Positions 30,987 through 42,216 of a stretch of 64,000 nucleotides of DNA are shown piece after piece (positions within the stretch are counted from its first letter, which is position 1; the number at the start of each line of letters is the position of its first letter). Both the position numbers and the translations under genes were made by a program. The DNA comes from an uncultured Gemmatimonadales bacterium (GTDB lineage: Bacteria; Gemmatimonadota; Gemmatimonadetes; Gemmatimonadales; Gemmatimonadaceae). The stretch covers positions 928,001 through 992,000 of the forward strand of contig CAWKMU010000003.1 of assembly GCA_963850905.1 (NCBI GenBank), read 5' to 3'. Below the pieces are notes generated by a model. That model was not told the DNA's origin and made no database searches. It was given only the letters and a program-made list of their open reading frames with translations.

Positions 30987-31130
30987 ATTGATTGGTGTGC
31001 GGCCGCACCAGCGCGGCACGGCACATGCCGGTGCAGGTGCAGGGCGGCTTGTAGGAGCGAGGCATGTCTCGCCCTCTGCCGCCCGCGTCGTCGGGGGGTG
31101 TTGGATCGGTCGATGCCCCGGGAGGAGCAG

Positions 31131-31427
31131 ATGTCCGACGCTACCATCTTCATCCTGGTGTTCGGCGGGCTGTTCCTGCTCCGCGCCCTCGCCGCGACGG
31201 TTGTGTTTTTCTACATCATCCCCCGCGGCGACCGTTGCCCCAATTGCGACGCCGCTACGGCGCGGGTGCAGACCGGACGCTGGAATCGCCTCATCCCATC
31301 ACTTCGCTCGAGCTGGTGCATGGAGTGCGGCTGGAGCGGAATGCTGCGCCATGGCCCACTCACGCCGAGGGATGAGGGCCTGCTGGCCGAGACCGCGCGG
31401 ACGAAGGGCCTGGGTGTGAGGGAGTGA
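31131..31427 (+). CDS. Small membrane-anchored zinc-ribbon protein
   Basis: GGAGG SD; N-terminal TM; CPNC...CMEC. Confidence 0.7.
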   Translation: MSDATIFILVFGGLFLLRALAATVVFFYIIPRGDRCPNCDAATARVQTGRWNRLIPSLRSSWCMECGWSGMLRHGPLTPRDEGLLAETARTKGLGVRE

Positions 31428-31514
31428 AAGAGATCGGGTGACGGGCGGCGGGCGCTAAAGCGTCCGCCGCCCGCCACACCGTAACCCGTAACCCGGCTCT
31501 TTAGTCCCTCCAGT

Positions 31515-32762
31515 GTGCGCACCAGCCCAACCCGCATTCGCCAACTCGACGTGCTGCGAGGCGTAGCCGTTGTGCTCGTGCTCGGCCGCCACATGGGCGG
31601 AGTGCCGCTCGACGTTCCCTTTGTGGCACAGAGTGCGCTCGTTCTCTGGCTTCGAACAGGCTGGATCGGCGTCGATCTCTTTTTCGTCTTGAGCGGCTTT
31701 CTCGTCTCGGGCCTGTTATTCCGCGAGTACGGCCGCCTGGGCGAGGTCCACGCGGGGCGGTTCCTCGTCCGACGGGGACTTCGGATTTACCCCGCCTTTT
31801 ACATCTTCCTGATCTCGACCTCGATCGCGACTGGTACGGTTGGCACCCGCCAGTTCCTCGCTGACGCCTCGTTCGTGCAGAACTACATCCCCGGGTTGTG
31901 GGACCACACCTGGACGCTGGCGGTGGAAGAGCACTTCTATCTCCTCCTCGCGCTGCTCGTTGCGGTCCTCGTGCGGCGCGACGCCGCCCGCTCGACCCGG
32001 GGGACCGAGTCCCGGGGCGGGCGAGATCCATTCTTCGTAATCGTCCCGATATTCGCGGCGGTCGCGCTCACGGAGCTTGTATTGCGCATCGCGACGGCGC
32101 GATACGGCAAGCCCTACTTTGCCCATCATCTCTACCCGACACATCTGAGACTCGACAGCCTGCTCTTCGGCGTGCTACTCGAGTACCTGGTCTGGTCGCG
32201 CGGTCAGTCGGTGTGGGCGTGGGTGCGCGCACATCAACCGCTCCTCGTGCTCACGAGCATCGTCTGCCTCGCACCGCCCTGCTTCCTGCCAGCGACCGAT
32301 CCCTTCATGGAAACGGCGGGGTTCACACTCCTCTATATCGGCTTCGGCGCGGTCCTGATGCTGGCACTGCGCCCGGCCCCGGAGGCGAACGCGCATGCCA
32401 CGCACGACGCGAAAGCCCAGCCCAGGACGGTTGGATCTTGGCGACGGGTCGTTGACGGTTGCACGCCCGTCCCGCACCGGGCTGCCTCCGTGCTGGCGTG
32501 GATCGGCGTCTACTCCTATTCGATTTATCTCTGGCACCTCGCCGTCAAGAAGTGGGCGGTCCCCGCCATTGTCCGGACGCTGGGCGCTCACGAGGGCGGC
32601 ATCGTAGCGTTGCTCGTGTACCTGGGCGCGTCGCTGCTCACGGGTGTCGCCATGGCCCGCCTGATCGAGATCCCGACGCTGGCCCTGCGGGACCGCTGGC
32701 TCCCTGGTGTCGCGACACTGCAGGTCCCGCCCGCGGAGCGCCGTGACGACTTGGCTGCATAA
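31515..32762 (+). CDS. Acyltransferase family 3 (OafA-like O-acyltransferase)
   Basis: LDVLRGVAV, GVDLFFVLSGFL, HTWTLAVEEHFY, SYSIYLWH. Confidence 0.92.
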   Translation: MRTSPTRIRQLDVLRGVAVVLVLGRHMGGVPLDVPFVAQSALVLWLRTGWIGVDLFFVLSGFLVSGLLFREYGRLGEVHAGRFLVRRGLRIYPAFYIFLISTSIATGTVGTRQFLADASFVQNYIPGLWDHTWTLAVEEHFYLLLALLVAVLVRRDAARSTRGTESRGGRDPFFVIVPIFAAVALTELVLRIATARYGKPYFAHHLYPTHLRLDSLLFGVLLEYLVWSRGQSVWAWVRAHQPLLVLTSIVCLAPPCFLPATDPFMETAGFTLLYIGFGAVLMLALRPAPEANAHATHDAKAQPRTVGSWRRVVDGCTPVPHRAASVLAWIGVYSYSIYLWHLAVKKWAVPAIVRTLGAHEGGIVALLVYLGASLLTGVAMARLIEIPTLALRDRWLPGVATLQVPPAERRDDLAA

Positions 32763-32767
32763 AGGCG

Positions 32768-35158
32768 CTACACACCGAGCGTCACTCTGAACTGCACGGT
32801 GAATGGCCGGCCGATGGCTTCGCTGCTGAAGAACGCGCCCTTCAAGATGTAGTTGTTGTTGAAGAGGTTGGTGAAATAGACCTCGGGCTTGACGCTCGTG
32901 CGGCCAGCGTAGAAGAAGTAGCCCAGGCTCAGGTTCTGGATGTAGCTGGGTGCCACTTTGAACGCGCGGTTGAAACAGAAGAGGCCTGTGCAGTAGGTGT
33001 TGTACCCAGGCTGAAAGTTCGGTGACCCCGGCGTGTCGGAGTTGTAGGCGTGCACCGTGTCGGGCGCGTAACCATTCGTCAGCCCACTTCCGTAGATGCC
33101 GGTCGCGCTGACGACGAAGCGGTGTTGGCTGTACATCAGATTCCACACCGACGACAGCCGCTGGTCGTGATCCAGGTCGAAATAGGTCTGCGGTGTCTGA
33201 ATCGGGAAGAACCCGCCAGTGATTGGACCGATCCCGTACGCGTGGTTGAGTGCGAGATTCACGTAGCCGGTGAGTGGCCCGCTTGGCCGCACCTCGATCA
33301 CGCCCTCGATGCCCGTCACCCAGATGTGGCCGATGTTGACGTCGGTCGTGATCGTCGATCCCGGGACCGTGTTATCGTCGATACCGGGCGTGCTTTCCTT
33401 GTGGAAGGCCGACAGCTTGGTGACGATCCCCAGCGGGAAGCGATGCAGAAACGCTCCCTCGATGAATGAGTCACGCTCCGGGAGCGTCGGGCTCGTCGCA
33501 ATGCCGTCCTGGGACGCCGAGGTGATGTCTCGGAGGTCCTCAATGTTCGTCGGCATGAAGAGCCGACCGAAATAGAGGTAGAAGGTGTTCGCCTCATCAG
33601 GGTAGAAGTTGAGGCGAATTCTTGGACTGACCTGGGTCTGGTTTGGCGCGAAGGGCTCCACATGGCTATCGAAGCGCAACCCGGTCCGAAGCTCGAACCA
33701 CTCGACCGGCCGTGCGTTCATCTCTGCGTACGTTCCGAAGTCGTATCCGTCGAGCCCTGAGTTCGATGCAATCGGAGCCTCGGCACCTCGTGGATCGAGG
33801 AGCTCGAAGTCCTCGTGGCCGAAGGTGTGTGAGTACGTCGTGCCGACCTTCCCGTCCATCTTCCCGGTAATCATCGGGAAGGAGAAGTCAGCCTTCACAC
33901 CCAGAATGTCGAAGTTCCGGTCCTCGGAGACATCGCGCGGCGTGTGCGTGGGGTCATTCGCATCGATAAACGATGGCGAGTCCGACTCGCCAGGTCGATA
34001 GGTCAGTGAACCGGTGCGGAAGTACGGCCCGATGAACAACTCCGGCGACTGGCTTGCTTCGTCGGTGCCTACGCCTTCGCCGAAGCGGTGATGGTAGGCG
34101 AAGTTGAGGAAGCCGTTGACGTCGGTCTGATGATCGTTCAGAGTCTGGACTGCCGAGTCATACGGCACGTCGAAGTGCGTCATCGAGTAGTTGGCGTCGA
34201 GCGAGATGAGATCCCGCGGCCCCGCCGAGTACTGCAGCTTGCCGAACCCGTAGTAATCCTGGCCGCTGTTGTGATAATTCACTGGTGCGTCACCGCCGGC
34301 GTCGCCAACGATCGGATCCTGGCGCATGTCGCTGCCTTGCGCTTGCCCCGAGATGAACATCCCGAGCCGTCCGGAATTCCCGCTCATGGTGAGCGCCTGT
34401 CCGAGTGAGCCGTAGGAGCCGCCGTACGTCGAGAGCTCCCCGTGGAACGGGCCTGATGGAATTCGCGTCTCGATGTTGATGATCGCTGCCTGGCGCCCGC
34501 CGTACTCCGCGTCCCAGCCGCCGGTTTGGAAATCGATCTGTTGTACGACCTCGGGACTGAACAGCTCATTGAGCGAACCCGCGATGCCCGGTGGGACCGG
34601 CACGTTGTCGATGTAGTACGTGTATTCCGCGTGCTGACCGCGGATGTGCACTTCGCCAGTGGGCGCACGGGCGGCGCCGGCAATCGACTGCTGGATCAGC
34701 GCCGACGTGGTGGTGGACGGGGCGGCGGTCGCTTCGTTCTGGCTATACGTCTGATCGCCGGTCTGGGTGTTGACCGCCACCGGCGCCTGCGCCGTTACTT
34801 GAACCGCCTCGAGCGCGGCTGCCGCCGGGAAGAGCTTGAAGTTCACGTGTACGGTGGCACTCGCAACCGTCACCTCCGTGCCTTTCGCCCGGTAGCCGAT
34901 AAAGTGGGCGGTGACGGTGTAGGTGCCTGCTGGCACGCTGTGCATGATGTAGCGACCGAACGCGTCGGTCGTGGTGTTCGCGACAATGGTCGTCGCGTGC
35001 TGGACAGCGATTTCCACCCCCGGGAGCGGGGCGCCATTGGTGCTGTCGGTGACGGTGCCAGCGAGGTCGGCCGACACGGCGGTCGTCGATACAGGAGAGC
35101 GTGCGCCATCGATGTGTGGCGTGCCTAGCAGCGCGAGCGCGATGCCAATATGAAACAC
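32768..35158 (-). CDS. TonB-dependent receptor with N-terminal carboxypeptidase-regulatory-like domain
   Basis: GTVTD..G.PL.G N-domain, HIRGQH plug, TGGWDAEYGGR, SPRIRL, NLFN; GTG 35158 with GAGGA SD. Confidence 0.88.
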   Translation of the reverse strand: MFHIGIALALLGTPHIDGARSPVSTTAVSADLAGTVTDSTNGAPLPGVEIAVQHATTIVANTTTDAFGRYIMHSVPAGTYTVTAHFIGYRAKGTEVTVASATVHVNFKLFPAAAALEAVQVTAQAPVAVNTQTGDQTYSQNEATAAPSTTTSALIQQSIAGAARAPTGEVHIRGQHAEYTYYIDNVPVPPGIAGSLNELFSPEVVQQIDFQTGGWDAEYGGRQAAIINIETRIPSGPFHGELSTYGGSYGSLGQALTMSGNSGRLGMFISGQAQGSDMRQDPIVGDAGGDAPVNYHNSGQDYYGFGKLQYSAGPRDLISLDANYSMTHFDVPYDSAVQTLNDHQTDVNGFLNFAYHHRFGEGVGTDEASQSPELFIGPYFRTGSLTYRPGESDSPSFIDANDPTHTPRDVSEDRNFDILGVKADFSFPMITGKMDGKVGTTYSHTFGHEDFELLDPRGAEAPIASNSGLDGYDFGTYAEMNARPVEWFELRTGLRFDSHVEPFAPNQTQVSPRIRLNFYPDEANTFYLYFGRLFMPTNIEDLRDITSASQDGIATSPTLPERDSFIEGAFLHRFPLGIVTKLSAFHKESTPGIDDNTVPGSTITTDVNIGHIWVTGIEGVIEVRPSGPLTGYVNLALNHAYGIGPITGGFFPIQTPQTYFDLDHDQRLSSVWNLMYSQHRFVVSATGIYGSGLTNGYAPDTVHAYNSDTPGSPNFQPGYNTYCTGLFCFNRAFKVAPSYIQNLSLGYFFYAGRTSVKPEVYFTNLFNNNYILKGAFFSSEAIGRPFTVQFRVTLGV

Positions 35159-35365
35159 GGTTGCGTCCTCGTCAGAAAGGAGGGCGAGTCGAGAAACATC
35201 CCCGATGCCTCGAAGCGGGCGTGGCACGGCAAAACGCCGTGCGCCAGCGGTGAACTCCGCCTTTCCGGAGGGGGCGGGCGCCTGGCGGCGCCCGAGAGAG
35301 TAGAAAATCTGAAAGTAGAGAGTAGAGAACGACTGGCGACCGTTCGGTCGACGCGCCCGTACCGT

Positions 35366-35779
35366 CTACGTCTGCTTCCTACTTCTGAAGGTCTGCTCTC
35401 CTGGCCGTGATAGCGCCCGCGCCTCCGGCGACGCAAACGCCGGTGGTGCTCGGGTGCGGGGGAGCGCGCCGATCCACGTTGGCGCGGGCGTGTCTGCCGG
35501 CGCTGGAGCGGGAACGCCCGCGGCGGCTGCGGGCGCTGGAATCGTTGGAGGAGTTGGCTCCTTTCCGCCAGCCGATAAGTACTGACAGAGCGCGCAATCG
35601 TCCGGGTGTACGTGCGCGCACTCCGGACGGCGGTGTGACTCGATGTGCGACGCGGCCTGTGGTGCGACTGACGCCGCTTCCAGCTCCGCGTCGGCGAGCG
35701 ACGCCGCCGCCGGTCCAATCAGCTGGACCAGCGCGACAACGAGCGCTAAGAACCGGAGGCGGAGCGGACGGACAGGCAT
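35366..35779 (-). CDS. DUF2946-like leader protein (signal/TM, HxxxCxxC, RAPP)
   Basis: MPVRP..TM..HIESH..CAHVHPDDCALC..Pro/Ala linker..RTRAPP; directly upstream of TonB receptor. Confidence 0.75.
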   Translation of the reverse strand: MPVRPLRLRFLALVVALVQLIGPAAASLADAELEAASVAPQAASHIESHRRPECAHVHPDDCALCQYLSAGGKEPTPPTIPAPAAAAGVPAPAPADTPAPTWIGALPRTRAPPAFASPEARALSRPGEQTFRSRKQT

Positions 35780-35963
35780 CGAGCGCATTGTAACGAGTAG
35801 GGGCGCCACGCGCACGCGGGCCAACGCGGTACTGACGCGCCGCACGAGACGAACGTTGCGGCCGGACCGGGCAGAGAACGGGGTTCGGCTCGCCGGCATG
35901 TGTCGCCGTTTCGGAATCCCGTCCTCCTCTGTTCCCTCGACGGTCCGGTGTTACATTCGACCC

Positions 35964-36386
35964 ATGCAATCACGGTGGCGGCGCGCGGTAGCGACGGTGA
36001 TCGGGGTATGGTTCACCTTGTCGGTGTCCGGCGTTGCTTTGCAGCTGTGCCCCCTGCACGGGATGCAGATGGCCGCTGGGGCGCACCAGGCCGGAACGGA
36101 TTGCGACCGGACTAGCACGCATGGCCCCGGCTACGCGGGCTCACCCGCTCAGCACGGCAGCCAGCACGGCAGCCAGCACGGCAACTCGCACGACGACTGC
36201 ACCTGCACCGGGATGTGCTGCGTCACGGCGACTGTGACGCTGGCGGCAGCCCCGATCGTGCCGGCGCCGGTCGTGGTGGCCGAAGCGCCGGTAATGGCGC
36301 CCGTGGCCACACGCGAGCTCGCGCCACGCGCGGCGCCTGACGTCACCCTCCCACCTCCGCTGGGCCCGCCAACACTCCGCGCCTGA
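35964..36386 (+). CDS. Cys/His-rich leader protein with C-terminal LPPPLGPP motif (DUF2946-like)
   Basis: TM, CPLHG, (QHGS)2QHGNSH, CTCTGMCC, terminal PPPLGPP; directly upstream of TonB receptor. Confidence 0.75.
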   Translation: MQSRWRRAVATVIGVWFTLSVSGVALQLCPLHGMQMAAGAHQAGTDCDRTSTHGPGYAGSPAQHGSQHGSQHGNSHDDCTCTGMCCVTATVTLAAAPIVPAPVVVAEAPVMAPVATRELAPRAAPDVTLPPPLGPPTLRA

Positions 36387-36486
36387 CCCCGACCCAGGGG
36401 TCTCTGCGACTGAGGCGCGCCGATCCGGCCGCCCCCGAGCCAGGCAAAGTGCCTGCGCTCGTTTCACTCGCGCGGAGGATACCACA

Positions 36487-38730
36487 GTGCAAGGCAATTG
36501 GGGGCGCCCCAGCCGTGGCGGCGCCACGGCTGGACATAGAAGCAGACTACTGGCGTTGATCCTCGTCGCGGGGACGGCAGGCACATTGCGCGCGCAGGCC
36601 ACGACGACGGCCGACACCGGTCGCCACACCGGCGGCGGCGGTGTGACGACGTCGGCAGACAGCGCCGCGGCCGCAGCGTACGTCGACTCGATGGCCGGCA
36701 CGCCAGCTCATCGACGGATGACGCACGCCGACAGCGTCCGCGCCGCCCGGCGCGATTCGCTGGCGCGCATCGCCGTCCGACTCGGCGCCGTCACGATCAC
36801 GTCGACTCCGGTCCAGGCCTCCGAGCCGATCGACGTCGTACGCGTGACGCCCTCGGTAATCGCGCAGACGCCATCGAACTCTCCATGGGAATTGCTGCGA
36901 GAGACAGCGGGGCTGGAAGCGCATGAGCAGGGACAGGGACCAGGGTTCGCATCCGACATGTCGATCCGCGGCTTCAGCTCTGACCACTCGACCGACATTG
37001 CGTTGTGGGTGGACGGGGTTCCAATCAACGAGCCCGTGAATGGCCATGCGGAAGGCTATAACGATTTCACAACGATCTTTCCGGAAGCTGTGAGCGGCAT
37101 CGACGTGATCAAAGGTCCGACGAGTGCGTTATATGGCAACTTCGCCTTCTCAGGCGTCGTCAACGTCCGCACGCTGGATCGGATCGACAACACGCAACTC
37201 GATGTTTCCGCCGGCAGCTACGGCAATTATGAGGGTGTGCTGCTCACGGGGTTCGACCACGGCAACACGACGGGGATGCTCGGCATCCGTGCGACCCACG
37301 AGGACGGGTGGCGGCCGCACGGCGAGAATCAGATCGGCCAGCTCCACGGACGACTCGAGCACGAGATCTCGCGAAACACGACCCTGGACTTTGGGTTGGA
37401 GTTGTATGCCACGACGTACAACTCGCCGGGTTTCCTCGACACGGCATCGTACCTGGCCCGCCACTACAACATCGTGTCGAACTTCGGGGACGGTGGCTTC
37501 AAACGTCGCGGGCAGGAGCGCGCGAGCATGCGCACCCTGTTCAACCCCGACCTCGAGTGGCGCACAACCCTCTACGGGATCGAGGATACGTGGAACTTCT
37601 GGCTCAGCACGCCGCCGGGACTGGGCGGACTGTTGGAGGGGAGCGGTGTCGAGACGAGGGAGTACGATGGTCGCTACGGTGGCGGTGCGACGTCCGCCAT
37701 AACGTACACGACGACCCACGTCAACATCACCGCTGGCGGCGAAGGACGCTACGACTATTCGGACTACGAGAACTGGGGCGAATACGGCAGCAAGTTTCGG
37801 ACGGACTCGGTGCCATTCGGCTTGACGCAGGCGCACCAATCATCCGGCGGCCTTTTCGTGCAGTCGAGTTTCGATCTCACACGATATCTTCGCTTCGACC
37901 TCGGAGGGCGCGTCGACCAGTTATCGAGCTACGCACACACGCCGTCCGCCTATAACTACGACTCTCTGCCGGCCGCGCCGTACTACTCGCTCGGTCCATA
38001 CGCCAATGTCCAGCGCAGCAAGGGGATCTTCTCACCAAAGACCGGTGTCTTGCTGCGCCTCACGCCATGGATGGGCGTCTACGCGAATATCTCACGCGGA
38101 TGGCGTCAGGCCGATGGCGTCATATTCGACCCGACTGTCCCCTTCATCACGCTCTGGGACTACGAAGCGGGAGTCAAAATGGGGCGCGGCCCATGGGCGC
38201 TCGAAGCGGCGGTCTTCCGCATGGACCTGAGCAATACGCAGACGTACAACGGCGTGACGACGATCAGCGGCGGACCCAGCAAGCGGCGCGGTGTGGATCT
38301 GACCGGACACCTCGTCGTCACCCCCGCCGTATTGCTGACGAGCAGTCTCACTGTCGTCGATGCCAAGTACACGAAGTACTACGATTCGGACGTTGGGATC
38401 GACTACTCGGGCCAGCCCGTGTTCAATACGTCGACGTACGTTGGCGACGTAGCCATCCAGGTCGCTCCACCACACGCGATCTGGCAGTGGCGGTTGGGCA
38501 CGAACCTCCAAGGACGATACACACCGTTCGAGGAGACACCCGGGCTCACCCGGCCCGCCTTCGCCCTCTTCTACACCAGCGGCGGCGTGCGTGTCGCGGA
38601 TAACGCCCACCTCGAGGTGGGTATCCGCAACCTGCTGAACACCCAGTATCGCGAGTTGGAATCCGGGTACTTCATCACCCCCGGCCAGCCCCTCTCCGTC
38701 TTCGTAACGATGCATTATGACATTTTTTAA
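36487..38730 (+). CDS. TonB-dependent receptor (His-containing plug, possible metal uptake)
   Basis: GGAGG SD; IRGF..DH..D, NGHAEGY, IDVIKGPTSALYG, SPK, RNLLN, C-terminal F. Confidence 0.9.
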   Translation: MQGNWGRPSRGGATAGHRSRLLALILVAGTAGTLRAQATTTADTGRHTGGGGVTTSADSAAAAAYVDSMAGTPAHRRMTHADSVRAARRDSLARIAVRLGAVTITSTPVQASEPIDVVRVTPSVIAQTPSNSPWELLRETAGLEAHEQGQGPGFASDMSIRGFSSDHSTDIALWVDGVPINEPVNGHAEGYNDFTTIFPEAVSGIDVIKGPTSALYGNFAFSGVVNVRTLDRIDNTQLDVSAGSYGNYEGVLLTGFDHGNTTGMLGIRATHEDGWRPHGENQIGQLHGRLEHEISRNTTLDFGLELYATTYNSPGFLDTASYLARHYNIVSNFGDGGFKRRGQERASMRTLFNPDLEWRTTLYGIEDTWNFWLSTPPGLGGLLEGSGVETREYDGRYGGGATSAITYTTTHVNITAGGEGRYDYSDYENWGEYGSKFRTDSVPFGLTQAHQSSGGLFVQSSFDLTRYLRFDLGGRVDQLSSYAHTPSAYNYDSLPAAPYYSLGPYANVQRSKGIFSPKTGVLLRLTPWMGVYANISRGWRQADGVIFDPTVPFITLWDYEAGVKMGRGPWALEAAVFRMDLSNTQTYNGVTTISGGPSKRRGVDLTGHLVVTPAVLLTSSLTVVDAKYTKYYDSDVGIDYSGQPVFNTSTYVGDVAIQVAPPHAIWQWRLGTNLQGRYTPFEETPGLTRPAFALFYTSGGVRVADNAHLEVGIRNLLNTQYRELESGYFITPGQPLSVFVTMHYDIF

Positions 38731-38735
38731 CGGCC

Positions 38736-38851
38736 GGGTGACGGGTAGCGGGTGACGGGTGAACAAACCAGAAGGCCAGTGGCTGGCGATCCGTCAGTGG
38801 CCTTCGAGGTAAATTGCCGTCACCCGTCACCCGTCACCCGCCCGTCACCCG
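38736..38851. repeat. Heptamer-armed inverted-repeat element (GGGTGAC arms)
   Basis: GGGTGAC GGGTAGC GGGTGAC GGGTGA-ACAAACC..GAAGGCCA/TGGCCTTC..(CCGTCAC)n. Confidence 0.85.
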
Positions 38852-38853
38852 CT

Positions 38854-40821
38854 TTGTCTAGCTCCTCCCCTCACCTCGAAGCCTCCTTCGACGTCATCGT
38901 CGTCGGTGGCGGTCACGCAGGGACCGAAGCGGCTGTCGCGGCGGCCCGGCTTGGGGCGCGGGTCGGGCTCATCACGAGCGCACTCGAGAGCATCGGGCAG
39001 ATGTCGTGCAACCCCGCGATCGGCGGGGTAGCCAAAGGCACAGTGGTTCGCGAAGTCGATGCTCTTGGTGGCATCATGGGACGCGCCACGGATCTCGCGA
39101 TGCTGCAGTTCCGGATGCTCAATCGCAGCAAGGGGCCGGCCGTATGGGCCCCGCGAGGTCAATGCGATCGCGGCCTTTATCGACGCGCCGTGCGCTCGCT
39201 CATCGAGCAGCGTGCAGGTCTCTCGCCCATTCAGGGAACCGTCGCGCGACTGATCCTCGACGAGTCGGGCGACAACGGGCGTCCGCGGGTTGCTGGCATC
39301 GAGACGATCGAGGGACGTCGCTTCGGTGCGCGCGCCGTGGTGGTGACGTCGGGGACATTCGGTCGGGGACGAATTCACATCGGCGTCGACCGACAGATGG
39401 GAGGGGGACGAGCGGGCGAGGCGCCGACGACCCATTTGTCCGAGCAGCTCGAGGCGCTTGGTCTCACGGTGAGCCGATTCAAGACCGGAACGCCCCCGCG
39501 CATCGATGGACGGTCGGTCGACTTTCGCTCGCTCGACCGGCAGCAGAGCGAGATCGAGCAGTTCGACTACTCGTGGTCGCATTTCTGGCCGACGCCGCGC
39601 TCAGGGGCAACGGGGACTCGTCATCCCGCACAGCTCCCGTGCTGGATCACGTTTCTCGAGGAGGAAGGCAAGCACATCATCGCCGATCACATCGGCGAGT
39701 CCGCGATGTATGGGGGTGCGATTGCCTCACGCGGCCCGCGGTACTGCCCGTCCGTCGAGGACAAGATCGTCAAGTTTCCTGCGGCCGAGCGACACCAGAT
39801 CTTCCTGGAGCCCGAGGGACACGACACCGCGGAACTCTACGTGAACGGCCTCTCGACGTCACTCCCCGCGCCGGTGCAGCTATCGATTCTGCGAACGATT
39901 CGCGGCCTCGAGAACGTCCGTATGACACGCGCCGGGTACGCGATCGAGTACGATTACTATCCGCCGACGCAGCTCGACGCGACCCTCGCCGTTCGTGCAA
40001 TTCAGGGACTGTATTTCGCGGGTCAGATCAACGGAACGACTGGCTACGAGGAAGCCGCTGGCCAGGGTGCCATCGCGGGGTTGAATGCGGCACTCGCTGT
40101 GCAGGGACGAACGCCGATAGTGCTGGGGCGCGAGACGTCCTACATTGGGGTGCTGGTCGACGACCTCGTCACGCGCGGCGTTGACGAGCCCTACCGGTTG
40201 TTCACATCACGCTCCGAATTTCGCCTGACGGTCCGACAGGACAATGCAATCGCGCGCCTCGCGCCGACGGCGACGTCGCTCGGCCTGTACGATGCCGGCG
40301 AGTCCGCAGTGGTCGACCGACGGCTCGCCGCCGAAGGCGAAGCCCGGGCGCTGGCCCGGGCGACATCGGTGCGGCCGGATCAGGTGTCGGCTCTGCTCGA
40401 TGCGGCGAAGAGCGCGCCGGTCGCGCAGTCGGTCCGCATCGTGGATCTCGCCCGTCGCCAGGGTGTCGCCCTCGATGCACTCTTCGCTGCCGCGGGTGTC
40501 GGTGTCGCGCTGCCGCGAGACGCCGTCGTCACCGCGGAGCTGGAGATCAAATACGAGGGCTATTTCGAGCGAGAACGTATCCAAGCCGACCGGATGCGGC
40601 GGATGGGCGAGTTGACACTCGCAGATGACCTGCCGTACGCCGAGATGCAGTCGCTGACCTACGAGGCCCGCCAGAAGCTGTTGGCGCGGCGCCCCGCGAG
40701 TCTCGCCCAAGCATCACGCATTCCAGGCGTGAGCCCGAGTGATTTGCAGAATTTGGTGGTCGAGGTGGAAAGGTCCAGAAAGGCGGGGTCGGGGATCAGG
40801 GGTCAGGGGTCAGGGGACTAA
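38854..40821 (+). CDS. mnmG: tRNA U34 5-carboxymethylaminomethyl modification enzyme MnmG
   Basis: VVGGGHAGTEAA, MSCNPAIGG, RFKTGTPPR, GPRYCPS, GQINGTTGYEEA, EPYRLFTSR; start uncertain. Confidence 0.97.
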   Translation: MSSSSPHLEASFDVIVVGGGHAGTEAAVAAARLGARVGLITSALESIGQMSCNPAIGGVAKGTVVREVDALGGIMGRATDLAMLQFRMLNRSKGPAVWAPRGQCDRGLYRRAVRSLIEQRAGLSPIQGTVARLILDESGDNGRPRVAGIETIEGRRFGARAVVVTSGTFGRGRIHIGVDRQMGGGRAGEAPTTHLSEQLEALGLTVSRFKTGTPPRIDGRSVDFRSLDRQQSEIEQFDYSWSHFWPTPRSGATGTRHPAQLPCWITFLEEEGKHIIADHIGESAMYGGAIASRGPRYCPSVEDKIVKFPAAERHQIFLEPEGHDTAELYVNGLSTSLPAPVQLSILRTIRGLENVRMTRAGYAIEYDYYPPTQLDATLAVRAIQGLYFAGQINGTTGYEEAAGQGAIAGLNAALAVQGRTPIVLGRETSYIGVLVDDLVTRGVDEPYRLFTSRSEFRLTVRQDNAIARLAPTATSLGLYDAGESAVVDRRLAAEGEARALARATSVRPDQVSALLDAAKSAPVAQSVRIVDLARRQGVALDALFAAAGVGVALPRDAVVTAELEIKYEGYFERERIQADRMRRMGELTLADDLPYAEMQSLTYEARQKLLARRPASLAQASRIPGVSPSDLQNLVVEVERSRKAGSGIRGQGSGD

Positions 40822-40911: not shown

Positions 40912-42216
40912 CTACCGTCTAACGTCTGCTCGGGCGCTCGCGCGCCCGAGCCGCACATAGTACAACTGCTCTCGCACTGAGTGCGCCTTGTAGCGCCGGG
41001 TTGGACTTGGATTGTCTGAGCGGTAGCGCTGATACTCACGGGCCACACGCGCGAAGGAGCGCGGGCGGCCCGCGCGGCGGAAAATGCGCTCGATGTCGGC
41101 GTCGGGAATGATGCCCTCGCTGTTGTAGCTCAGAACCACGTGGTCTGCATCGACGGTCTCGATCAACTGTTCGAGTGCCGCGACGCATTGGCCACGCGTG
41201 GACCACGCCGACTTGATGTTGCCGTCGAGCGGCAGACCGGTCTTGCCGCGCAGCACGACCGGTCCGTCGAACCAGCCACGCGCAACGAGCTCGGGGATGT
41301 GGTAGTAGCCGCTGTATTGACGTGTGTTGTACGGCGGGTCCAGGTACAGCAGATCGAACCGACCGGCTCGCGGCGCGATCTCGGAGACATCGCCTCGATA
41401 GGCCTCGCACGGTCGGTTGGAACGAGCTCCAGGTCGATGCGCGCATGACACGATCCAGGGCACACGCAGCTTGAGGTCGCGGAGCGCGTTGGGCTGCCAC
41501 TGCTTGATGTACGCGGCGTAGATCCCCGCGGTGTTGGCGACCGCGTCAGCTGCTTCCAGCAACGCGGCCAGCAAGAGATAGAACTCTTCGTCGGACACCG
41601 CTCCAGTACCCCGCCACTCATGCAGCCGCTCGCGGATCGCGTCGATGCGACGGGCGACGCGCAAAGTGAAGTACATGCGCTGTACTGTCGCGTGACTGTC
41701 CGTATGATGGCGTAATGTCGCGGGTTCACAGTTGGCAGAGGCTGGCAGCTCATCGGGCCCACTTGAGCCATCCGGGGCCGCGAAATGGCGCGAGATGAAG
41801 GACTCGTGCGGATCGAGATAGCTATCGAGGTACACCAGGACCTCGTCCATCGGCCGCGTCACTGACGGTGGTGCGGTGCTCGCGGCGGCCGCTGCGGCGG
41901 CGGCCATCCGGGTACCGACTCGCTGGGCGACGCGCGCTTTGAAATCCGGTCGCGCGCGAACGCGTCTCACGTCGGGATCATCCGCGAGCGCGCCGAACCG
42001 CGGATAAGCATCGGCGACGACGTACGCGCGCTGAAACGCGTAGCTGAATCCCATGAGGTCACAGCTCGCGACGCAGGCCCCGCGCGCCTTGAGGAATCGA
42101 CCAACAGCCGCCGTCCCCGAGAACGCGTCGAAGGCTCGCACCGGCTGGATCCGTTTGCGATCCAGCAGTTCTGCGATGAAGGGGAGGAGCTTGGTCTTGT
42201 TGCCTATGTAGCGCAG
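40912..42216 (-). CDS. Orphan N6-adenine DNA methyltransferase (D12 class); CTG at the expected Met
   Basis: (L)RYIGNKTKLL, DAFSGTAAVG motif I, LYLDPPYN..QY..YYH motif IV, LSYNSEG. Confidence 0.88.
   Translation of the reverse strand: MRYIGNKTKLLPFIAELLDRKRIQPVRAFDAFSGTAAVGRFLKARGACVASCDLMGFSYAFQRAYVVADAYPRFGALADDPDVRRVRARPDFKARVAQRVGTRMAAAAAAAASTAPPSVTRPMDEVLVYLDSYLDPHESFISRHFAAPDGSSGPDELPASANCEPATLRHHTDSHATVQRMYFTLRVARRIDAIRERLHEWRGTGAVSDEEFYLLLAALLEAADAVANTAGIYAAYIKQWQPNALRDLKLRVPWIVSCAHRPGARSNRPCEAYRGDVSEIAPRAGRFDLLYLDPPYNTRQYSGYYHIPELVARGWFDGPVVLRGKTGLPLDGNIKSAWSTRGQCVAALEQLIETVDADHVVLSYNSEGIIPDADIERIFRRAGRPRSFARVAREYQRYRSDNPSPTRRYKAHSVREQLYYVRLGRASARADVRR

Follow-up and report, generated by a model that had tools for sequence, protein, structure and literature searches.

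The window analysed here is a stretch of 64,000 nt from an uncultured Gemmatimonadales bacterium (GenBank assembly GCA_963850905.1, contig CAWKMU010000003.1, positions 928,001 to 992,000). As listed in Table 1, two ORFs of about 140 codons diverge from a 184-bp spacer, and each is followed on its own strand by a gene for a TonB-dependent receptor; this layout, described in a sequence-only reading of the same DNA, was confirmed. The left ORF most likely starts at ATG 35779 (137 aa), the other candidate start at 35788 giving 140 aa. The probable start of receptor L is GTG 35158 and not 35227, as relatives keep the arrangement GAGGA-7 nt-RTG there. In the left module 282 nt lie between the Pro-Pro motif and the start of receptor L; in the right module the Pro-Pro is found 4 residues before the C-terminus, with 100 nt to receptor R.

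Table 1. Features of the divergent leader-receptor locus, in window coordinates.
Feature	Position	Strand	Remarks
TonB-dependent receptor L	32768-35158	-	CarboxypepD_reg, plug, presumed barrel; rich in invariant His; probably imports zinc
Shine-Dalgarno arm of receptor L (GAGGA)	35163-35173	-	predicted partner of the left-leader tail
Left leader, 137 aa	35366-35779	-	hydrophobic N-terminus, HxExH..C..H..CxxC, RAPP
Left post-RAPP codons	35430-35440	-	predicted anti-SD for receptor L
RAPP codons	35441-35452	-	predicted stall site of left leader
-10-like hexamer TACAAT	35787-35792	-	7 nt ahead of left ATG; leaderless-type start
Conserved AAC-N16-CGTC element	35834-35857	-	faces left leader
-10-like hexamer TACATT	35952-35957	+	6-7 nt ahead of right ATG; leaderless-type start
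Right leader, 140 aa	35964-36386	+	hydrophobic N-terminus, CPxH, CxCxGMCC, Arg-less LPPPLGPP end
LPPPLGPP codons	36348-36371	+	predicted stall site of right leader
Right tail codons (Leu-Arg-Ala)	36375-36382	+	predicted to pair with receptor R SD arm
Shine-Dalgarno arm of receptor R (GGAGGA)	36470-36480	+	
TonB-dependent receptor R	36487-38730	+	copper by neighbourhood, nickel/cobalt by distant homology

Three further elements were recorded in and around the locus. The left intergenic region holds a short hairpin-like sequence (35287-35326) that also occurs in unrelated contigs and is probably a small dispersed repeat. A long hairpin with spurious miRNA matches directly follows receptor R (38731-38847), and the genuine start of mnmG is probably located past this hairpin. 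Between mnmG and parA, a D12-class adenine methyltransferase gene occupies 40912-42141 on the minus strand.

Both ORFs are more than chance products, because they encode conserved proteins with invariant Cys/His and a terminal Pro-Pro, and because a genome-wide scan for a hydrophobic segment, a Cys cluster and a C-terminal Pro-Pro motif picked just 4 of 63,087 ORFs, namely the two leaders plus a pair of right-leader paralogs. The mean hydropathy of their hydrophobic segments is 1.97 and 2.33, and in each leader a Cys/His cluster precedes the terminal [AG]PP motif by 44-46 residues. Close relatives come from Gemmatimonadales MAGs. Against DUF2946 (PF11162) the left leader scored 19.8 and 22.3 bits and the right leader 21.9 bits; thus both match the family, as had been suggested, yet stay below its gathering cut-off of 23.7. 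These weak matches, together with a CxxC-to-RAPP spacing of 44 residues in the left leader against 45 in CruR, uphold the proposed kinship to CruR. Judged from their sequences, the two ORFs are real, conserved leaders of a CruR/CutF-like kind, and DUF2946-like at a level below the Pfam cut-off.

The left family was found in 115 of 251 sampled genomes of the phylum, and PF11162 matches 12 of 25 aligned family rows at E<=0.01 (best 2.1e-6). Its motif is R[AG]PP, with Arg and Pro-Pro invariant and A/G exchanging in 29/29 and 25/25 aligned rows. The HxxxCxxC ligand set first proposed holds for its CxxC (C62-x-x-C65), but the full metal site reads HxExH-x4-C-x3-H-x3-CxxC. Among the 70 members listed, HxE is present in 62 and CxxC in 49, and all 49 with CxxC keep it 43-46 residues from the Arg. 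After RAPP the window leader carries 24 residues, compared with about 3-11 in close relatives. A long-read indel error was considered as the origin of this tail and rejected, since a short-read contig, which may derive from the source sample, is identical over 35329-35479.

The right family is unannotated and comprises 1,900 representatives (50% identity clusters) at E<=0.001; it was found in 84 of the 251 phylum genomes. Among the best 150 members, 148 end in [AG]PP, 147 have Pro at -7 and one has Arg at -4. Hence the motif is not of the RAPP type, Arg being missing in 147 of 148 relatives and in all 78 leaders listed. The commonest ends in the best 150 are LPFANGPP (51), LPFATAPP (17) and LPPPLGPP (10). 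Of the proposed ligands, CxCxGMCC and C29 are conserved and the poly-His stretch is not. CxCxxxC occurs in 65/78 and CxxC in 6/78 of the listed leaders, and the distance from Cys cluster to motif is 44-47 residues in 129 of 134 scored. The right leader also matches CopL weakly (20.4 bits, cut-off 40), and its paralogs in the same genome head copC (contig C3) and copC-copD (contig C4).

The earlier idea of a single dual switch driven from one promoter region was not borne out. The left and right family profiles do not align (HHalign probability 17.9). Of 9 same-genus genomes, 7 keep the pair at the nfeD-mnmG site and 2 have the right module there on its own. For 76 right-type and 69 left-type loci the 750 nt upstream could be inspected, and only 8, all from this genus, have an opposite leader there. 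A TAnnnT box precedes the start codon by 5-8 nt in 54/78 right-type and 28/70 left-type listed leaders, compared with about 0.7% of start-like codons in the downstream genes, with 432 and 253 candidate codons tried. We infer two separate leaderless transcripts; as each leader has its own -10 box, no single shared switch is indicated, and the two appear to be autonomous.

No conserved shared operator or palindrome was found in the 184-bp spacer, the length of which varies among relatives. A strict sigma-70 promoter scan gave no match, neither intergenic region holds a convincing intrinsic terminator, and an Rfam scan of 31000-40000 returned no riboswitch and no other credible family. The AAC-N16-CGTC element resembles an ECF sigma promoter. 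It is present in 7 of 8 genus spacers, the eighth holding a near match, and is absent from all other left-type upstream regions; taken alone it is weak, because 73 looser matches occur genome-wide. Other Gemmatimonadota clusters also carry two leaders, in tandem or convergent and mostly of one family (L185, L187, L193, L212, L279, L045, L201); in L201 the tandem consists of a right-type and a left-type leader.

The leader tails are predicted to be coupled to the receptor ribosome-binding sites (RBS) through RNA pairing. For the right module, all 8 pairs of a tail:SD helix hold in all 12 aligned sequences, a set without the two copC paralogs and a relative carrying an insertion. The predicted helix forms in two registers, A in 8 sequences (tail xLRA) and B, shifted by 7 nt, in 4 (tail AQ[SN]V), and each subgroup pairs just 3-5 of the 8 positions in the other register. 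The predicted pairing of its codons with the SD arm in these two registers accounts for the conservation of the tail peptide. The computed cost of opening the right RBS falls from 11.7 to 6.1 kcal/mol when a ribosome blocks the Pro-Pro footprint; with the ribosome placed at the stop codon instead, the cost is not lowered (12.8). A hidden Shine-Dalgarno freed by a stalled ribosome is therefore predicted for the right module.

For the left module, consensus folds pair the post-Pro-Pro codons with the Shine-Dalgarno of receptor L. The single-sequence fold of the window gave no gain on stalling (8.3 vs 8.2; 8.2 vs 8.4), since a local hairpin can take over. Its relatives were mixed, with gains of 2.9, 6.6 and 3.3 in some, 0.6, -0.1 and -1.3 in others and one without a parsed start; a gain of at least 2.9 was seen in 3 of the 7 left-type sequences having a value. 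Across the families, the window most complementary to the RBS lies under the stall footprint in 16/49 right-type (expected 5.0) and 25/58 left-type loci (expected 5.9), in counts that drop loci without a clear SD from the 78 and 70, use automatically picked starts, and include Pro codons that are C-rich by nature and kin that are not independent. Under the same limits, a block on the Pro-Pro opens the RBS by at least 2 kcal/mol in 19/48 right-type and 25/53 left-type loci, compared with 5 and 7 for a control block 60 nt further upstream.

Instead of unmasking a Shine-Dalgarno, the left leader could act through Rho-dependent termination in its long intergenic region. The lack of an equilibrium gain in the window and the C-rich stretches that flank both Pro-Pro motifs are consistent with this route, which CruR is described as using (PMC9426467), but left-type tails pair with the SD both in the consensus folds and family-wide. 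Alone or combined with the inverted polarity weighed below, it is an improbable alternative. Less likely still, the ORFs could encode small exported metal binders that have an independent function, their Pro-Pro tails and SD pairing being incidental. A signal-like N-terminus and conserved Cys/His would fit such proteins. Against this speak the invariant terminal Pro-Pro at a fixed distance from the Cys cluster with low conservation between, the helix with its two registers, and codon usage at the first Pro, where the rare CCT stands in 34/78 and 22/70 leaders compared with 6-7% for downstream genes and 5-9% at other positions of the leaders.

The genes behind the leaders point to the metals. 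We surveyed the upper parts of the match lists, namely 79 right-type and 70 left-type leaders with 5 kb downstream. Copper markers lie behind 29/79 listed right-type leaders (CopC 15, CopD 7, SCO1 9, PCuAC 9, MbnP/H 9, YcnI 5, CtaG 2) and on the same strand behind 0/70 left-type leaders, where a single opposite-strand oxidase was seen. ZnuA with ABC-3 follows 11/70 listed left-type leaders on the same strand (15 on both strands) and 0/79 right-type ones. No marker was found at 50/79 right-type and 54/70 left-type listed loci. The ZnuA/ABC-3 families carry Mn and other ions too. The suggestion that the two modules serve different metals is supported by the segregation of zinc and copper markers, from which we infer the metals themselves: the left module most likely answers to zinc and the right module most likely to copper. 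Right-type operons repeatedly carry a gene for a fatty-acid hydroxylase/desaturase downstream of copC/copD or of SCO/PCuAC (C3:283826, C4:28466; L042, L045).

The first genes of the 70 listed left-type loci include 25 of the receptor L type, 24 of a cluster best matching ZnuD and 7 of a related cluster; the ZnuD scores in NCBIfam, 175.7 bits (for the representative of the ZnuD-best cluster) and 141, are both far below the cut-off of 950. Receptor L shows a CarboxypepD_reg match, a Plug match below cut-off and no barrel match in Pfam, and its barrel is presumed from paralogs and relatives with Pfam barrel matches; a PDB sequence search found no match for it. Of 3 regions read around distant plasmid kin of receptor L, 2 place them in a ZigA/Fur-family/Zn-ABC cluster or beside a metal ABC binding protein. 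Receptor L is a probable zinc importer. Elsewhere in this genome, C3:2971148-2978762 (L320) holds a tandem pair of receptor L paralogs that no leader gene precedes, with a same-strand ZIP gene 1.8 kb downstream. At C4:19171-25163 (L321), Nramp, a DtxR/MntR-family regulator and a Cys-rich ORF of 106 aa, which has CxxC repeats but no Pfam match, precede a distant receptor L paralog.

Receptor R gave Pfam Plug and barrel matches, plug-level matches alone in a PDB sequence search, and a predicted plug-and-barrel TonB receptor fold (pLDDT 83.1) that gives no substrate. This fold is nearest to PqqU, Fiu and YncD at 15-19% identity, with OprC at rank 26, and neither window receptor matches the ZnuD or TonB-copper family profiles. 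First genes of its type stand at 32/79 listed right-type loci, and 7 of the 13 copper-marked loci with it come from one genus. Behind it lies mnmG, not copCD, in the window; copC follows the receptor R type in 6 of 9 same-genus genomes.

The same stalling switches could serve other metals, with nickel or cobalt for the right module or further ions (Mn, Co) for both, a reading that we consider unlikely though somewhat ahead of the other alternatives. Its grounds lie in the distant kin and in the genus. The nearest annotated plasmid kin of receptor R (23-26% identity) adjoin NiCoT, NikR, hydrogenase and cob genes, with HoxN/NixA Ni/Co transporters next to them in 3 of 4 regions read and cobalamin genes near the fourth; NiCoT is present in 10/10 genus genomes and NiFe hydrogenase in 3/10, this one included; receptor R has invariant His but no invariant Met/Cys; and Nramp and a DtxR-family gene precede one of the receptor L paralogs. 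But 23-26% is a low identity to Ni receptors, no NicO, HupE or hydrogenase domain was found downstream (cluster representatives and most singletons of 643 ORFs), and the copper markers at 29/79 listed right-type loci argue for copper.

We thus favour, at a probability of about 55%, two independent metal-sensing leader switches of the CruR/CutF kind set back to back, the left for zinc and the right for copper, which stall when their metal is scarce. By analogy with CruR, CutF and RAPP biology, the ribosome would stall in metal scarcity, its P and A sites occupied by the two prolines, and cover the tail codons, so that the Shine-Dalgarno would be free and the receptor translated. Binding of metal to the cluster, by then just beyond the exit tunnel, would let the nascent chain fold and release the stall; the tail:SD helix would then re-form and the importer be switched off. 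Against this reading, plain PP/PPP stalls can be rescued by EF-P, the gene for which is present in this genome. Also against it, Arg is described as required for RAPP arrest (PMC9426467, PMC12992588).

The polarity might instead be that of CutF, with a metal-induced stall turning the right operon on; as said, we hold this improbable, alone or joined with the Rho route. CopCD can belong to resistance operons, and the right leader has CxxxC and PPP like CutF along with its weak CopL match. Against it, the downstream genes are importers and cuproenzyme assembly factors (SCO1, PCuAC, MbnPH, CtaG), and multicopper oxidase or RND efflux is rare among them.

No FUR-family protein (PF01475) was found in the 10 genus genomes (66-98% complete), compared with matches in 224 of the 251 phylum-sample genomes, 212 of them over the cut-off. 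ZnuA has no match in this genome, and CsoR/RcnR-family genes are present in 10/10 genus genomes. It is tempting, if doubtful, to see here a genus apparently without Fur/Zur in which a RAPP-leader zinc sensor and an Arg-less LPxxx[GA]PP copper/nickel leader, both carried by leaderless mRNAs and wired through their tails to the SD, would stand in for Zur and provide the first zinc-sensing arrest peptide. Left-type leaders are not a strict Fur substitute, because many genomes with Fur also have them. Only copper has so far been shown to control such leaders (CruR, CutF). With two families of the same geometry and different ligands, arrest motifs and target genes, the locus offers a pair for testing metal selectivity; it also suits the questions of whether arrest by an Arg-less [GA]PP occurs in the presence of EF-P and whether Zur can be replaced by a leader.

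Among known systems, CruR (Bp2923, DUF2946/PF11162) of Bordetella pertussis is the leader of cruR-crtA(bfrG)-bp2921 (PMC9426467; CrtA, PMC12914433); its CxxC-to-RAPP spacing is 45 (PMC9426467) and its arrest at RAPP is shown in vitro (PMC12992588). The left leader resembles it as a small, putatively exported uORF with CxxC 44-45 residues before RAPP and a TonB receptor downstream. It differs by its additional HxExH..C..H site, its score below the Pfam cut-off, a 24-residue tail longer than that of CruR, and an apparent action through an SD-masking helix rather than Rho termination; it is likewise the first gene, but heads zinc-type genes (same-strand copper markers 0/70, ZnuA with ABC-3 11/70 listed). 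The right leader differs from CruR in having neither CxxC nor Arg.

RAPP/RGPP uORFs before TonB receptors have been reported as general in Gram-negative bacteria, and the arrest peptides ApdA, ApdP, SecM and uA_LPPP as monitors of Sec/YidC (10.1101/2023.09.02.556018 and PMC12992588). The left family shares their R[AG]PP end, and LPPP occurs in the right leader. The right family differs, as its Arg-less x[GA]PP would escape a RAPP/RGPP search and most of its members have LPFA, not LPPP. The term 'Gemmati' is absent from the text and 3 supplements of the CruR paper (PMC9426467), from the accessible passages of PMC12992588 and 10.1101/2023.09.02.556018, and from 3 small supplements of PMC9973294, of which the File S1 list may contain members of both families; NGPP, TAPP and LGPP are absent from the accessible text of PMC12992588. 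A literature search returned nothing on these Gemmatimonadota families, on LPxxx[GA]PP motifs lacking Arg or on leaders that respond to zinc, and supplementary lists may contain members.

CutF of Rhodobacter capsulatus, CutF-like clusters and CopL are treated in two reports (bioRxiv 10.1101/2022.11.11.516240 = PMC9973294, and 10.1101/2025.02.05.636593). The survey proposed that not all such leaders are copper-specific, and its rules were a length below 150 aa, PP within 15 residues of the C-terminus and a same-strand gene within 1000 nt, together with a cleavable Sec signal peptide, in whose place both leaders show a hydrophobic segment, and a downstream SD masked until a stalled ribosome frees it (PMC9973294). 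The right leader falls within the rules on length and position (140 aa, PP 4 residues from the end, receptor at 100 nt); the left one falls outside the 15-residue rule through its 24-residue tail, and its close relatives fall within it. With CutF the right leader shares CxxxC, a C-terminal PPP without RAPP and a stall predicted to free the SD, and its hydrophobic N-terminus may correspond to the signal peptide of CutF. It differs in its LP-x-x-x-[GA]PP motif with invariant Pro at -7 and in an anti-SD located in its own tail codons; moreover, Cu turns CutF on and the gene under its control encodes a detoxifying oxidase, whereas the target here is an importer. The general scheme is already in print; the present analysis adds the two-register helix, the tail pairing and the Fur gap.
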